Positions 7,069 through 54,470 of a DNA stretch of 64,000 nucleotides are shown piece by piece. The stretch's first letter is position 1. Each line of letters begins with the position of its first letter. Under the pieces are notes generated by a model. That model did no database searches, was not told where the DNA came from, and worked only from the letters and a program-made list of their open reading frames with translations. The DNA is from Escherichia coli. Lineage in GTDB: Bacteria; Pseudomonadota; Gammaproteobacteria; Enterobacterales; Enterobacteriaceae. The translations under genes and the position numbers were made by a program. The stretch is taken from assembly GCF_003018255.1 (NCBI RefSeq), contig NZ_CP027440.1, one strand, 5' to 3'.

Positions 7069-7149
7069 CACAGATTCTCCAGAGGTAATGTAGGGATTGT
7101 TTTAATTCCCGCTCCCTTATGGGAGAAGGTTAACGCTTGGGTAACCCTT

Positions 7150-7416
<267 letters not shown>

Positions 7417-7449
7417 AACCGTTACCGACTCGCATCGGGCAATTGTGGG

Positions 7450-16517: not shown

Positions 16518-17831
16518 ATGAAAAATATAAAATTCAGCCTGGCCTGGCAGATTCTGTTTGCTATGGTGCTGGGCATTCTCCTGGGAAGCTACCTGCACTA
16601 CCATAGCGACAGCCGCGACTGGCTGGTCGTCAATTTGCTCTCTCCGGCGGGTGATATCTTCATCCATCTGATCAAAATGATTGTTGTGCCGATTGTGATC
16701 TCCACGCTGGTGGTGGGTATCGCGGGTGTTGGTGATGCCAAACAGCTCGGGCGTATTGGCGCGAAAACCATTATTTACTTCGAGGTGATCACCACCGTCG
16801 CCATCATTTTGGGGATCACTCTGGCGAACGTCTTCCAGCCCGGTGCCGGGGTGGATATGTCGCAGCTGGCGACCGTCGATATCTCGAAATATCAGAGCAC
16901 TACGGAAGCGGTACAAAGCAGTTCCCACGGCATTATGGGCACGATTTTGTCGCTGGTGCCGACGAACATTGTGGCGTCGATGGCGAAAGGCGAAATGCTG
17001 CCGATCATCTTCTTCTCGGTGCTGTTTGGTCTGGGGCTTTCATCCCTGCCCGCGACGCATCGTGAACCGCTGGTGACCGTTTTCCGCTCCATCTCTGAAA
17101 CCATGTTTAAAGTGACTCACATGGTGATGCGTTATGCGCCGGTGGGTGTGTTTGCGCTGATTGCGGTGACGGTGGCTAACTTTGGTTTCTCGTCTCTGTG
17201 GCCACTGGCGAAACTGGTGCTGCTGGTGCATTTCGCCATTCTGTTCTTCGCGCTGGTAGTGCTGGGAATTGTGGCGCGCCTGTGCGGGTTAAGCGTCTGG
17301 ATCCTGATTCGTATTCTGAAAGATGAGCTGATTCTGGCGTACTCCACTGCCAGCTCTGAAAGCGTGCTGCCGCGAATTATTGAGAAGATGGAAGCCTACG
17401 GAGCACCGGCGTCGATCACCAGTTTCGTGGTGCCGACCGGTTACTCTTTTAACCTTGATGGTTCGACGCTGTATCAAAGTATTGCCGCTATTTTCATCGC
17501 GCAGTTGTATGGCATTGACCTGTCCATCTGGCAGGAAATCATTCTGGTGCTGACGCTGATGGTGACCTCGAAAGGGATTGCTGGCGTGCCGGGCGTGTCG
17601 TTTGTGGTGTTGCTGGCAACGCTGGGTAGCGTAGGTATTCCGCTGGAAGGTCTGGCGTTTATTGCCGGTGTTGACCGTATCCTCGACATGGCGCGTACTG
17701 CGCTGAACGTGGTGGGTAATGCGCTGGCGGTGCTGGTGATTGCCAAGTGGGAACACAAATTTGACCGTAAGAAAGCGCTGGCTTATGAGCGCGAAGTGCT
17801 GGGCAAATTTGATAAAACTGCGGATCAATAA
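16518..17831 (+). CDS. gltP: Glutamate/aspartate:proton symporter (DAACS family)
   Basis: 437-aa polytopic ORF recognised as GltP. Confidence 0.92.
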   Translation: MKNIKFSLAWQILFAMVLGILLGSYLHYHSDSRDWLVVNLLSPAGDIFIHLIKMIVVPIVISTLVVGIAGVGDAKQLGRIGAKTIIYFEVITTVAIILGITLANVFQPGAGVDMSQLATVDISKYQSTTEAVQSSSHGIMGTILSLVPTNIVASMAKGEMLPIIFFSVLFGLGLSSLPATHREPLVTVFRSISETMFKVTHMVMRYAPVGVFALIAVTVANFGFSSLWPLAKLVLLVHFAILFFALVVLGIVARLCGLSVWILIRILKDELILAYSTASSESVLPRIIEKMEAYGAPASITSFVVPTGYSFNLDGSTLYQSIAAIFIAQLYGIDLSIWQEIILVLTLMVTSKGIAGVPGVSFVVLLATLGSVGIPLEGLAFIAGVDRILDMARTALNVVGNALAVLVIAKWEHKFDRKKALAYEREVLGKFDKTADQ

Positions 17832-17871
17832 TTGAAGATTGCCGGGGATATCCACCCGGCAATATGTGGAT

Positions 17872-18247
17872 GCCTGATGCGACGCTTACCGCGTCTTATC
17901 AGGCCTACGCCAGACTGCGCAATAGCTTGATTTAGGGTGATTTTGTAGGTCGGATAAGGCGTTTACGCCGCATCCGACATCAATATCTGATGCGACGCTT
18001 GCCGCGTCTTATCAGGCCTACGCCAGACTGCGCAATAGCTTGATTTAGGGTGATTTTGTAGGTCGGATAAGGCGTTTACGCCGCATCCGACATCAATATC
18101 TGATGCGACGCTTACCGCGTCTTATCAGGCCTACGCCAGACTGCGCAATAGCCTGATTTAGCGTGATTTTGTAGGTCGGATAAGGCGTTTACGCCGCATC
18201 CGACATCAATGCCTGATGCGACGCTTACCGCGTCTTATCAGGCCTAC
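17872..18247. repeat. BIME/REP array, three full units plus one partial, 113-bp period
   Basis: CTGATGCG motif recurs at 17874, 17987, 18100, 18213 (exact 113-bp spacing); units contain REP palindromes; fills the gltP-yjcO spacer. Confidence 0.85.
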
Positions 18248-18248
18248 C

Positions 18249-18938
18249 TTAACCGTTAGTTAATTTTTCAAACTCTTCACACCCGGTATCAAACCCTTCC
18301 ATACAGCTCAGATTTAACCAGTGCAGCGCCTTTTGTTTGTTCTTCTCGATAAAACCTTCTTCACCGTTTAAGAACATCATTCCCGCCCAGTACTCGGAAT
18401 AACCGGTTCGGGAAATCGCAGAGCTGCGTTTGAAATACCAGGTTGCCTTGTCATCGTCGGCCTTAATGCCCACGCCGTTGGCGTAAATCAAACCAAGCAG
18501 CATTTGGGCATCGACGGCAGAGTCGTTCTCCAGATCTTCCGAGGCGTTTTCTAACAGCGAAATTGCCTTTGGATAATCCGGTTTACCCGCTTGCGTATTT
18601 ACCAGAATATGCGCCAGCGTTACTTCACCTTCTTTACTGCCCGCTTGCGCCGCTTTCTCTGCAAGAACTTTTGCTTGTGGATAGTCCAGACTGACCGGAT
18701 TGGTGATTTTGATCTGCGCTAACAGCGCGCAGGCATCAGCATCACCGCTGTCGGCGGCTTTCTGTGCCCAATATTCGGCTTTGCTCAAATCGCCGGAGCT
18801 AAACCAGCTGTCGGCAAGAAAATATTGTGCGCGTCGGTCCCCTGCCTCTGCTGCCTTTAAATACTGGCTGCCAGGCTCGGAGTCGTTCGCGTGGGCAAAG
18901 AATGTCAAAAACAACATCAATGCGATAATTTTTTTCAT
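18249..18938 (-). CDS. yjcO: Sel1-repeat periplasmic protein
   Basis: 229-aa ORF with signal peptide and Sel1-like repeats. Confidence 0.8.
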   Translation of the reverse strand: MKKIIALMLFLTFFAHANDSEPGSQYLKAAEAGDRRAQYFLADSWFSSGDLSKAEYWAQKAADSGDADACALLAQIKITNPVSLDYPQAKVLAEKAAQAGSKEGEVTLAHILVNTQAGKPDYPKAISLLENASEDLENDSAVDAQMLLGLIYANGVGIKADDDKATWYFKRSSAISRTGYSEYWAGMMFLNGEEGFIEKNKQKALHWLNLSCMEGFDTGCEEFEKLTNG

Positions 18939-19031: not shown

Positions 19032-21179
19032 TTACGCCAGTGCCGCTTCGCGCAGGCGAGTTTTCAACTTGTTGTACTCGTCAATCACGTACTGCTCGGC
19101 GGCGCGCTGATCGGCGATCGGCTCGACGCGCACGGCGCAGTATTTGTATTCCGGCGTTTTCGTAATCGGGCTTAAGTTTTCGGTCACCAGCTCGTTACAG
19201 GCACCAATCCACCACTGGTAGGTCATGTAAATCGCCCCTTTGTTCGGACGATCGCTGACCTGCGCACGGGTGATAATTTTGCCTTTACGCGAGTGCACCC
19301 AAACCAATGCCTCATCTTCAATACCCAGACGTTTGGCGTCTTCGGTATTGATTTGTGCGTAGCCAGGTTCATCAGCCAGCGCCGCCAGTGCCGCACAGTT
19401 ACCGGTCATCGAACGGCAAGAGTAGTGACCAACTTCACGCACCGTTGACAGTACCATCGGGTATTCGTCGGTGAGTTTGTCGATTGGCGCTACCCAGTCG
19501 CAGGTGAAGAACTGCGCCAGACCGTTCGGGGTATCAAACTTCTCTTTAAACAGATAAGAAGTCCCCTGATCGGCATCTGAAGTATCGCGGCAAGGCCACT
19601 GAATGAAGCCCAGTTCGCCCATTTTCTCGTAAGTCGCACCGTAGAAATCCGGGCACAGATGACGCAACTCGTCCCAGATCTCCTGGGTGTTGTTGTAGTG
19701 CATCGGATAACCCATACGAGTGGCAATTTCACTGATGATTTGCCAGTCCGTTTTCAGATCCCACTTCGGCTCAACCGCCTTGAAGAAACGCTGGAAGCCA
19801 CGGTCAGCCGCAGTAAACACGCCTTCATGCTCGCCCCACGACGTTGACGGTAAAATGACATCCGCCGCCGACGCGGTTTTGGTCATAAAGATGTCCTGAA
19901 CGATAACCAGTTCCAGATCTTCAAAGGCTTTACGTACTGCCGACAGTTCCGCGTCAGTTTGCAGCGGATCTTCGCCCATAATGTACGCCGCTCTCACTTC
20001 ACCATGCGCCACGCGGTGCGGCAGCTCGCTGATGCGATAGCCGGTATGAGCAGGCAGGCTTTCCACGCCCCAGGCTTTGGCGAATTTCTCGCGGTTAGCC
20101 GGATCTTTCACGTACTGATAGCCCGGATACGTATCCGGCAGCGCGCCCATATCGCAGGCACCCTGCACGTTGTTCTGACCACGAACCGGGTTTACACCCG
20201 CATGTGGCTTACCGAGGTTACCGGTCAGCATCGCGAGGCTGGTCAGAGAACGCACGGTTTCCACGCCCTGATAGAACTGGGTTACCCCCATGCCCCACAG
20301 GATGGCGGCGCTTTCTGCCTGGGCATACATCCGCGCCGCCTGACGAATCTCACTGGCGCTGACGCCGGTGATATCTTCAACCGACTCCGGCGTGTAGCCT
20401 TCAACGATTTTACGATACTCTTCAAAGCCTTCTGTACGGGAAGCGACGAACGCTTTGTCGTACAGATTTTCTTCAATAATGACATGGCCCATCGCATTCA
20501 ACAGCGCGATGTTCGAGCCGTTTTTCAATGCAATGTGCATGTCAGCAATGCGCGCGGTTTCAATTTTACGCGGATCGCAGACGATAATTTTCGCCCCGTT
20601 ACGTTTAGCGTTAATTACGTGATTCGCCACGATTGGGTGGGAATCCGCCGGGTTATACCCGAAAACGAACACTAAATCGGTATTATCAATTTCGTTAATA
20701 GCATTGCTCATTGCGCCATTACCGACCGATTGGTGCAGACCTGCAACCGATGGGCCGTGTCAGACACGAGCGCAGCAGTCAACGTTATTGGTACCAATAA
20801 CGGCGCGCGCAAATTTTTGCATTACATAGTTGGTTTCGTTACCCGTACCGCGCGAGGAGCCGGTCGTCTGGATGGCATCCGGACCGTACTTCTCTTTGAT
20901 GGCGCTCAGGCGCTCGGCAACGTAATTCAGTGCCTCATCCCAGGAAACAGGTTCGAGTTTGCCGCCACGCTGGCGACGGATCATGGGGGTTTTCAGGCGC
21001 GGGGTCAGGATCTGGGTATCGTTAATGAAGTCCCAGCCATAATAACCCTTCAGACACAGGGTACCCTGGTTGGTTTTCCCCTGCGCTGCCTCCGCCCGGA
21101 CGATTTTGCCGTTATCGACGACCAGGTTGATTTTGCAACCTGATGCGCAATAGGGGCAAACCGTGACGACTTTTTTCAT
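19032..21179 (-). CDS. fdhF: Formate dehydrogenase H, selenocysteine-containing (UGA recoded)
   Basis: 139-aa and 559-aa track ORFs are in frame across a single TGA at 20757..20759 (..CCARV-U-HGPSVAG..); total 715 codons; N-terminal CPYCASGC cluster. Confidence 0.92.
20715..20756 (-). other. SECIS hairpin immediately 3' of the fdhF UGA codon
   Basis: Sequence CACGGCCCATCGGTTGCAGGTCTGCACCAATCGGTCGG directly after the in-frame UGA can form the stem-loop expected for bacterial Sec insertion. Confidence 0.7.
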
Positions 21180-32826: not shown

Positions 32827-32912
32827 GCCTGATGGGCTACACTTATCAGGTCTACGTTCAGGTTATTTTGTTGGCCGGATAAGACACTTCATTAGCATCA
32901 CCATCCGGCATC
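32827..32912. repeat. REP elements between alsB and alsA
   Basis: GCCTGATGGGCTACACTTATCAGG and GCCGGATAAGAC..CATCCGGC palindromes of the REP type. Confidence 0.7.
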
Positions 32913-39610: not shown

Positions 39611-39697
<87 letters not shown>

Positions 39698-44931: not shown

Positions 44932-45018
44932 GTAGGCCGGATAAGGTGCTTGCACCGCATCCGGCATCAACGTCTGCACATTGTCGGATGCGACGCCGGG
45001 GCGTCTTATCCGACCTAC
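44932..45018. repeat. REP pair inside the phn operon (phnD-phnE spacer)
   Basis: GTAGGCCGGATAAGGTGCTTGCACCGCATCCGGCA and GTCGGATGCGACGCCGGGGCGTCTTATCCGACCTAC. Confidence 0.8.
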
Positions 45019-47471: not shown

Positions 47472-47580
<109 letters not shown>

Positions 47581-53193: not shown

Positions 53194-53243
53194 GCTGAAA
53201 CGGATGGCCTGATGTGACGCTGTCTTATCAGGCCAATTGAACT

Positions 53244-53260
53244 CTTAAGGTTCACTTAAT
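53244..53260 (+). promoter_or_regulatory. BasR/PmrA box upstream of pmrR
   Basis: CTTAAG-GTTCA-CTTAAT, ~45 bp upstream of the pmrR ATG. Confidence 0.6.
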
Positions 53261-53304
53261 CTCTGACGCGCATACTCTCCTCCAGGTTAACGGAGGAGAG
53301 TGCA

Positions 53305-53394
53305 ATGAAAAACCGTGTTTATGAAAGTTTAACTACCGTGTTCAGCGTGCTGGTGGTCAGCAGCTTTCTTTATATCTGGTTTGCCACGTTCTGA
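53305..53394 (+). CDS. pmrR: PmrR small membrane peptide (29 aa)
   Basis: ATG preceded by GGAGGAG RBS; encodes MKNRVYESLTTVFSVLVVSSFLYIWFATF. Below the ORF-track length cut-off; overlaps basS 3' end antisense. Confidence 0.7.
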   Translation: MKNRVYESLTTVFSVLVVSSFLYIWFATF

Positions 53395-54470
53395 TCTTTC
53401 TTCAGCCGTACCCAGGCCCGCGTGCCGGAAGTCTCTTGCCGGTTTTGCAGGAAAAACTGCCCGTGATGCAACTGTGTAATGCGGCTGACAATACTTAACC
53501 CCAGACCAATCCCGCCATAACGGCTGTCCATACGTACAAACGCTTTACTCAACTCCCCGCATTTACTCTCATCAATACCCGGTCCTTCATCTTCAACGGC
53601 CATGACCGCTCCGCCATCTTCTTGCAGCTTAATCATAATGTTGCTGCCTTGCGGGCTGTAACGATGGGCGTTTTCTACCAGGTTTCGCAATAACATCCGC
53701 AGCAGGGTTGCATCACCCTGAACGGTGATGTCGGCGGCGCTCTCTGGCAATAGCAGGTTTTGCTGTCGCTGGTCGAGCATGGTACTGAGTTCGTCATACG
53801 AGGGGAGAATGACATCTTCCAGCAGTTTTACATGTTGATAATTACCGGAAGAAAATGACTGTCCGGCACGCGCCAGTTGCAGCAGCTGGGAGACACTCTC
53901 CATCATCTGATCAAGTCGAGCCACTAACGGTGCTACATCAATGTGATGCGTTTTCGCCAGCAGTTCCAGATGCAAACGCACCCCCGCCAGTGGCGTTCGC
54001 AGTTCGTGCGCGACGTCAGCGGTAAACAACCTTTCGTTATCCAGCGTGCTGGTCAGGCGACTGACCAGATCGTTCAACGCCGAAACCACCGCTTCGATTT
54101 CGAGGGTGGCGCTGTGAATGGCAATAGGCGTTAAGTTGTCGGCGGTGCGCGCTTCCAGCTCTTTTTGCAGCTCCGCCAGCGGCCGGGTGATGCGGCGTAC
54201 CGCCTGATAGCAGATAAATAGCGTCAGGCTGACCATAAAGACGCCGGGGACGATCAGGCTGGCGACCGCCTCGCGGATCTCACGCATGATGTGGCGATCG
54301 TTGTTGCGATTGTCGCGTAGCGCCTGCTCAAACAGCTGAATCTGCTCGGTACTTTCATGCCATAGCCAGAAGACGCTGATCAGCTCAAACACCAACAAAA
54401 TGGCCCCAATGGTCAATATCAGCCGTTGGCGCAGCGATATTGGTCGGCGCAGAAAACGCATCAGATTCAA
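53370..54470 (-). CDS. basS: Sensor histidine kinase BasS/PmrB
   Basis: ~363-aa ORF with H-box ADVAHELRTPL; exact start uncertain. Confidence 0.9.
   Translation of the reverse strand: MNLMRFLRRPISLRQRLILTIGAILLVFELISVFWLWHESTEQIQLFEQALRDNRNNDRHIMREIREAVASLIVPGVFMVSLTLFICYQAVRRITRPLAELQKELEARTADNLTPIAIHSATLEIEAVVSALNDLVSRLTSTLDNERLFTADVAHELRTPLAGVRLHLELLAKTHHIDVAPLVARLDQMMESVSQLLQLARAGQSFSSGNYQHVKLLEDVILPSYDELSTMLDQRQQNLLLPESAADITVQGDATLLRMLLRNLVENAHRYSPQGSNIMIKLQEDGGAVMAVEDEGPGIDESKCGELSKAFVRMDSRYGGIGLGLSIVSRITQLHHGQFFLQNRQETSGTRAWVRLKKDQNVANQI

Follow-up and report, generated by a model that had tools for sequence, protein, structure and literature searches.

The spacer between the convergent genes gltP and yjcO in the 64,000-nt stretch of Escherichia coli DNA analysed here (the window) contains a tandem array of palindromic units, which we show to be a BIME-2 and the orthologue of REP321 in E. 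coli K-12. Taken jointly, this identity, a 3′-UTR role shared by both genes and a change of size in steps of 113 bp make up an account of the locus that we regard as highly probable. Publications already exist on the element, on its family and locus and on the strain-variable number of tandem BIMEs.

The genes gltP (16518-17831, + strand) and yjcO (18249-18938, − strand) are separated by 417 bp (17832-18248), of which 374 bp belong to the array. Tandem Repeats Finder placed the array at 17874-18247 with a period of 113, 3.3 copies, 97% matches, 0% indels and a score of 713, and the motif CTGATGCG was found on the + strand to start exactly at 17874, 17987, 18100 and 18213. Both results agree with the exact 113-bp periodicity that the initial annotation had read from these four positions. 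Across the whole window CTGATGCG matched 13 times with 3.7 matches expected, and this number was reached in 0 of 100 shuffles. Three in-register copies of 148 nt with identities of 100, 99 and 97% were detected by a repeat search. Since the last palindrome ends at 18247, a single base is left before the yjcO stop codon (18249-18251), and the location between convergent genes and directly at the yjcO stop, as described before, is confirmed by the ORF coordinates and the end of the array. The further statement that the array fills the spacer needs a small correction, as the first 42 nt past the gltP stop form a non-repeat leader with a hairpin of its own. This non-REP hairpin (17838-17863, + strand) starts 6 nt past the stop and consists of ATTGCCGGG, a loop of 8 nt and CCCGGCAAT, with a perfect 9-bp stem and −17.4 kcal/mol. 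It is part of the minimum-energy structure computed for the whole spacer and is kept in all 12 strains compared, where variation is located in or beside the loop. No T-run is present 3′ of the stem and the hairpin is not called by the terminator scan; it is probably the first 3′ structure that the gltP mRNA contains and may be the primary one.

The 113-bp repeat is composed of Z2, linker, Y and linker, occurs three times and is completed by a closing Z2. With the linker lengths in brackets, the order is Z2 (36) Y (9) Z2 (36) Y (9) Z2 (36) Y (9) Z2, followed by one base and the yjcO stop. The seven palindromic units alternate in orientation, with four Z2 on the + strand (4 matches to the Z2 pattern, 0 mismatches) and three Y on the − strand (3 matches to the Y pattern, 1 mismatch each). 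Z2 units have a length of 35 nt and Y units of 33 nt, and they are joined tail-to-tail by 36 nt and head-to-head by 9 nt, three times each. The palindromes were located by explicit unit patterns plus folding. An inverted-repeat search of 17800-18300 returned zero inverted pairs with a 9-nt exact seed, because the palindrome stems are short and interrupted and stay below such a seed.

The first Z2 unit (17872-17908, + strand) has its head to the left and the GGCCTAC tail to the right, shows 0 mismatches and folds as RNA into a computed hairpin of −21.3 kcal/mol. It is followed by the first tail-to-tail linker (GCCAGACTGCGCAATAGCTTGATTTAGGGTGATTTT; 17909-17944, + strand), which alone reaches −2.4 kcal/mol and is essentially unstructured, and by the first Y unit (17945-17977, − strand), which is inverted with respect to Z2 and has 1 mismatch and values of −18.8 kcal/mol for the + strand RNA and −19.2 kcal/mol for the − strand RNA. 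The first head-to-head linker of the S type (CATCAATAT; 17978-17986, + strand) was assigned, like the other two, by parsing the architecture. The second repeat comprises a pattern-matched Z2 unit with the loop variant TTGCC (17987-18021, + strand), a 36-nt linker detected by sequence search and the same as the first copy (18022-18057, + strand), a pattern-matched Y unit (18058-18090, − strand) and a 9-nt linker (18091-18099, + strand). The third repeat is built from pattern-matched Z2 (18100-18134, + strand) and Y (18171-18203, − strand) units, with a 36-nt linker (18135-18170, + strand) that differs from copies 1 and 2 at 2 positions, where it has the sequence common in other strains, and the 9-nt linker CATCAATGC (18204-18212, + strand). 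The terminal Z2 unit (18213-18247, + strand) lies 1 nt from the yjcO stop and, read on the − strand, provides the yjcO 3′-UTR with its first hairpin. Between the Y and Z2 heads the linker reads CATCAAT followed by AT or GC. The 36-nt linker is array-specific within the window, with three copies where none is expected by chance, and in MG1655 all five copies are located at gltP-yjcO.

The repeats had been recognized as a BIME in the initial annotation, and the alternation of Z2 and Y units with short and long linkers allows us to sharpen this assignment to BIME-2. The array contains Y and Z2 units and no Z1, successive units are inverted (Z2+ Y− Z2+ Y− Z2+ Y− Z2+), the heads are joined by the short S linker rather than by the long IHF-binding L linker of BIME-1, and multiple tandem copies are present in a number that varies between strains (3.3 here; 0 to at least 8 units). 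At the position of the s/l/r flanking motif a conserved 36-nt tail-to-tail linker was found, which may belong to the 'l' class, judged by its length. By definition, BIME-2 comprises z2 and y, an S linker, s/l/r flanks and multiple tandem copies (PMC3333891).

In a supplementary table REP321 is listed at MG1655 4295836-4296435 as 'Convergent, yjcO, gltP' (bioRxiv 10.64898/2026.03.23.713779), and the MG1655 array coordinates derived here are exactly the same. The gltP and yjcO flanks, the leader and the terminal junction of the window array are as in K-12. Under the name 'B319, located at gltP-yjcO' the element was used by Ton-Hoang et al. 2012 as a substrate of TnpA_REP (RayT) in vitro, with four linker cleavage sites (PMC3333891). 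The window region itself is 100% identical to E. coli strain 2017.09.02CC (NZ_AP025214.2). In the MG1655 reference, the last Y unit of REP321 lacks 2 bp (GGCGTTTACCGCATCC vs GGCGTTTACGCCGCATCC) and the array has 598 bp, compared with 599-600 bp in several other K-12 assemblies with five units; the deletion is a genuine mutation or else an error from early sequencing.

The initial annotation had counted this array as the second one in the window, and the other was found at 7148-7428. It is a BIME-2 array with a period of 91 bp and 94% matches, composed of three Y(−)/Z2(+) pairs with linkers of 10 and 14 nt, and sits between acs and yjcH within the acs-yjcH-actP operon, not between convergent genes. 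All three of its pairs score above threshold with the Rfam naRNA4 model. Three more palindromic-unit sites (32829-32855, 39613-39692 and 44932-45018) were detected on the way from the gltP-yjcO array to REP325, two of them Y/Z2 pairs and one a weak Z1-like unit, in accordance with EcoCyc, where the numbers REP322 to REP324 come between REP321 and REP325. At yjdM-yjdN (47489-47572), the REP325 orthologue consists of a single Y/Z2 pair in a 159-bp spacer, compared with six pairs and 657 bp in K-12; REP325, the basis of the nucleoid-RNA model, is strongly copy-number polymorphic itself. Further Rfam matches above the gathering score were obtained for the sRNA sraL (1323-1463, − strand), the fdhF SECIS element (20713-20767, − strand) and STnc630 (53236-53401, + strand), all of which are expected for the part of the chromosome concerned.

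The near-identity of the units, for which the difference TTACC versus TTGCC had been given as an example, was verified base by base. The three full units vary at only five columns: 17888/18001/18114 with A/G/A (the loop base of TTACC and TTGCC), 17927/18040/18153 with T/T/C, 17936/18049/18162 with G/G/C, and two adjacent bases at the end of the 9-nt linkers with AT/AT/GC. Over 113 bp, units 1 and 2 differ by this loop base alone, and they have AGCTTGATTTAGGG and the AT end of the short linker in common. All three linkers of the window contain GACTGCG, with T at the position where the arrays of MG1655, HT873X1 and ZF34 have A (GACAGCG). The mean difference between units is 3.3 nt within the window array vs 6.2-6.7 nt to the units of MG1655, HT873X1 and ZF34. 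Judged by these sequence differences, the units appear to evolve in concert within a lineage, and the single base between units 1 and 2, the lineage-specific T and the lower mean difference support the recent expansion proposed before, in the form of a probable duplication of the gltP-proximal unit in the lineage of the window.

A comparison of copy number between strains had been suggested as a check, and it revealed strong polymorphism. By direct parsing of 12 gltP-yjcO loci we obtained spacer lengths of 77 and 78 bp (both with one Z2), 191, 304, 416/417, 530 and 641 bp, which form steps of 113 bp, a length of 177 bp in O157-type strains, whose linker has lost 12 bp, and lengths of 147, 488 and 1,054 bp in B2-type strains. 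The range is thus 77 to 1,054 bp and 1 to at least 17 palindromes, and the spacer is among the most length-variable E. coli REP arrays. For a larger sample, drawn evenly from 5,422 ranked records, array length was read from the match span of a flank-only chimeric query. Zero, one, two, three, four and five full units were present in 23, 9, 2, 5, 7 and 2 of 48 non-B2-type genomes, respectively, and 0 to 7 extra units in 10 of the 11 B2-type genomes sampled; the remaining one, FDAARGOS_144, has a shorter spacer segment of 37 bp. With the 36-nt linker as a probe, at least one copy was found in 2,637 of 5,426 complete E. coli genomes (median 3, maximum at least 8), where the counts are a lower bound because diverged linkers escape the probe. 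About half of the 5,426 genomes therefore have no copy of this linker, and most of these represent the single-palindrome state. From this census, the seven-palindrome allele of the window is a minority state. The terminal Z2 is kept in all non-B2-type strains examined and is the sole palindrome in strains W and E7-1N7. In the B2-type strains AVS0655, FDAARGOS_1303 and clone D i14, most of the Z2 next to gltP has been deleted, the Z2 next to yjcO has the degenerate sequence CTGATGCGACGTTTGCTGCGCCTAC, and ABC-transporter genes replace fdhF downstream of yjcO.

Unit numbers vary even among K-12 stocks, here defined as genomes with 2-kb flanks 100% identical to MG1655. Four units were found in BW25113, DH5alpha, DH1, C600, J53, NCM3722, HMS174 and several assemblies labelled MG1655, five units in the MG1655 reference as well as in RR1, AG100, KLY and others, and two units and one unit in the two GM4792 records. 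The loss of a part of REP321 relative to MG1655 is mentioned in the J53 genome paper (PMC5968721), and the unit orders A-B-A-A-C in MG1655 and A-B-A-C in HT873X1 differ cleanly by one unit that was gained or lost. These differences reflect either change on a laboratory timescale or proneness to mis-assembly, and the spacer is therefore a likely site of assembly errors as well as a candidate typing marker. In the K-12-like strain USML2 (NZ_CP011124.1), the gltP-yjcO region extends over 3,933 bp, contains an IS150 transposase and has yjcO annotated twice, which points to a duplication or to the insertion of an IS at the array or close to it. The three full units of the window might themselves be the product of an assembly collapse or expansion, with another array length in reality. 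Two units that are one base apart over 113 bp are difficult for short reads, and unit numbers conflict between assemblies labelled MG1655 (4 and 5) and between the two GM4792 records (2 and 1). However, the same 374-bp length with seven palindromes occurs in independent assemblies of other strains (ZF34, BL21-AI, 146, LB858871, PI12 and JNE23-011) whose unit sequences differ, the unit-specific variants in the window follow an orderly pattern, and the collection consists of RefSeq assemblies of complete-genome level throughout. We consider an artefact in the unit count to be unlikely.

Whole units of 113 bp would be gained and lost by unequal homologous recombination or by replication slippage between near-identical units, since events in register between such units would give exactly the observed steps. 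In addition or instead, cleavage and strand transfer by RayT may contribute, which is the published alternative (PMC3333891). In NZ_AP025214.2, rayT is annotated at 1,907,238-1,907,735 between yafL and lfhA as an intact single-copy gene, and by tblastn its product is 95% identical to K-12 RayT over 164 aa. The segment of yafL plus rayT is covered in 3,560 of the 5,426 genomes, about two thirds. The largest array found, in the 1,054-bp spacer of clone D i14, belongs to a strain without rayT at the canonical yafL-lfhA site, which means that a large array can persist without RayT. The yafL-lfhA gap of clone D i14 comprises 274 bp with three tandem BIME-like doublets, a different linker set and no RayT match; it is a 'REPtron' remnant minus the transposase. 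The same strain has an island of roughly 105 kb at tRNA-Asp.

At the RNA level, the palindromic units are computed to form hairpins of about −19 to −21 kcal/mol each from either strand, and the whole spacer folds far more stably than shuffled controls, with z = −9.4 for the + strand and −9.7 for the − strand. On the yjcO-sense RNA, the stem of the terminal Z2 begins 5-6 nt past the UAA and has −21.8 kcal/mol. An intrinsic terminator, i.e. a G+C-rich hairpin plus T-run, was called on neither strand of 17832-18248, and this reading of the array was dropped. A promoter inside the array was also discarded, as the lone sigma-70-like match sits within yjcO and corresponds to chance frequency. The same applies to a protein-coding function: the array is touched only by a TTG-initiated ORF of 32 aa (17832-17930) which runs into a palindrome.

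From these properties and from work on K-12 we propose that the array would act as a 3′-UTR element common to gltP and yjcO, as a hairpin barrier and partial terminator. On the yjcO side, the first hairpin just past the stop would block 3′ exonucleases and dampen translation termination, as was reported for REPs in such a position. The gltP transcript would first run through the small conserved hairpin and then through seven REP hairpins, by which read-through may be attenuated, and Rho probably terminates the remaining read-through transcripts before they extend across yjcO in the antisense direction. REPs in K-12 are located almost only at the 3′ ends of genes. For REP325 a dual role was reported, as a partly Rho-dependent terminator or attenuator and as a stabiliser of the upstream mRNA; in the same study, convergent gene pairs with a REP between them had higher expression, terminal REPs were not generally tied to longer mRNA half-lives and effects were context-dependent (bioRxiv 10.64898/2026.03.23.713779). 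The row for REP321 contains an in-vitro Rho-binding (rut) peak on the + strand at 4,296,428-4,296,596, inside a BST (bioRxiv 10.64898/2026.03.23.713779). This peak overlaps the yjcO-proximal end of the K-12 array, from which it would seem that gltP-sense transcription is able to pass the array and is then terminated by Rho. BST is read here as bicyclomycin-sensitive transcript, which is our assumption. The position of the K-12 rut site past the array implies that the array alone does not fully stop gltP transcription.

REP321 is also listed among the REPs at most 15 nt from the upstream gene, and according to the 15-nt rule stop-proximal REPs interfere with translation termination (PMC12306157). 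In the window, this distance is kept on the yjcO side, where the REP follows 1 nt past the UAA and its stem 5-6 nt past it, and is exceeded on the gltP side, where 42 nt lie between the stop and the first REP. The terminal Z2, as the unit that single-palindrome strains have kept, is the best candidate for a selected function. Since about half of the genomes have no 36-nt linker and mostly a single palindrome, extra units cannot be essential and may be neutral. The number of units, which differs among K-12 laboratory stocks and covers 0 to at least 8 in the species, might change fast enough to act as a heritable and reversible 'dial' for gltP read-through to the Rho site and for the amount of YjcO, which we consider very improbable; if true, it would be a contingency-like expression switch made of REPs and not of simple-sequence repeats. 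The natural allelic series of 1, 3, 5, 7, 9, 11 or more palindromes with near-identical flanks represents a ready-made test of whether two convergent genes respond to REP array length in their termination, mRNA stability and translation. The locus also has the value of a warning, as the spacer is unstable or assembly-sensitive even inside K-12.

Other explanations for the array have to be weighed against such a 3′-UTR role. The array could be without host function, a locally amplified, neutral or selfish REPIN/BIME population that is tolerated between convergent genes and drifts in length by recombination, slippage or RayT activity. The absence of an apparent preferred size over a range from 1 to at least 17 palindromes, the lack of the 36-nt linker in about half of the genomes, the differences between K-12 laboratory stocks with no known phenotype, the concerted evolution of units within a lineage and the in-vitro cleavage of the linker of the K-12 locus by RayT (PMC3333891) would all be in line with this reading. 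However, none of the non-B2-type strains examined has lost the terminal Z2 next to the yjcO stop, and convergent pairs with REPs are more expressed genome-wide (bioRxiv 10.64898/2026.03.23.713779). We give neutrality of the entire array a limited chance, noting that it is compatible in part with the preferred explanation, in which the first palindrome would be functional and the extra units possibly neutral. A role at the DNA level would be that of a gyrase binding and cleavage site which absorbs positive supercoils between the convergent genes. BIME-2 arrays are preferred targets of DNA gyrase binding and cleavage, and the cleavage was reported by Espeli and Boccard in 1997. The membership of the array in BIME-2 and the convergent gene arrangement agree with this possibility, whereas strains with one palindrome are common. 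We regard a role as a gyrase site as rather unlikely here; it would be compatible with an explanation at the RNA level.

The Y/Z2 pairs might also be genes for small RNAs like naRNA4, binding HU and condensing the chromosome as first proposed for REP325 (PMC4550694). The Rfam model RF02564 does match on the + strand at 17948-18018 (69.8 bits), 18061-18131 (68.1 bits) and 18174-18244 (77.3 bits), above the gathering score of 59.5, and the matches are oriented to gltP as naRNA4 is to yjdM. The model also matches at 7160-7412, 44935-45015 and 47492-47569, that is at every other Y/Z2 pair of the window, so that its matches amount to recognition of the BIME-2 doublet and do not by themselves speak for a specific RNA gene. 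Moreover, deletion or over-expression of REP325 leaves the nucleoid volume unchanged and contacts between REPs were not seen, in a study whose authors include the senior author of the original naRNA4 proposal (bioRxiv 10.64898/2026.03.23.713779). The reduction of REP325 to one pair in the window further argues against a conserved, dosage-dependent role in the nucleoid. A function as nucleoid RNA is thus very unlikely for the gltP-yjcO array, and the 3′-UTR role remains the explanation we prefer.

In comparison with known systems, the array is closest to REP321 of MG1655 (BIME 'B319'), with which it has in common the locus, the 42-nt leader with its hairpin, the Z2 and Y units, the linkers, the 113-bp period and the terminal Z2 at 1 nt from the yjcO stop. 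It differs by 7 palindromes instead of the 11 of the MG1655 reference, by GACTGCG for GACAGCG in every linker and by AGCTTGATTTAGGG in units 1 and 2. As a tandem, extragenic array of alternating Y and Z2 units with short head-to-head linkers, tail-to-tail flanking linkers and a putative 'l' class for the latter, it shows no departure from the BIME-2 family in the classification of Gilson and Bachellier (PMC3333891). REP325/naRNA4 (yjdM-yjdN in K-12; RF02564) is likewise a tandem BIME-2 of Y-S-Z2 pairs in a 3′-UTR, but has linkers of 16/17 nt and a period of 100 bp instead of 9/36 nt and 113 bp, and lies between tandem genes and not between convergent ones. REPIN-RAYT systems resemble the window array in their inverted REP doublets with a GTAG/CTAC foot and in a single-copy rayT in the genome; their doublets are dispersed, whereas those at gltP-yjcO are amplified locally in tandem.
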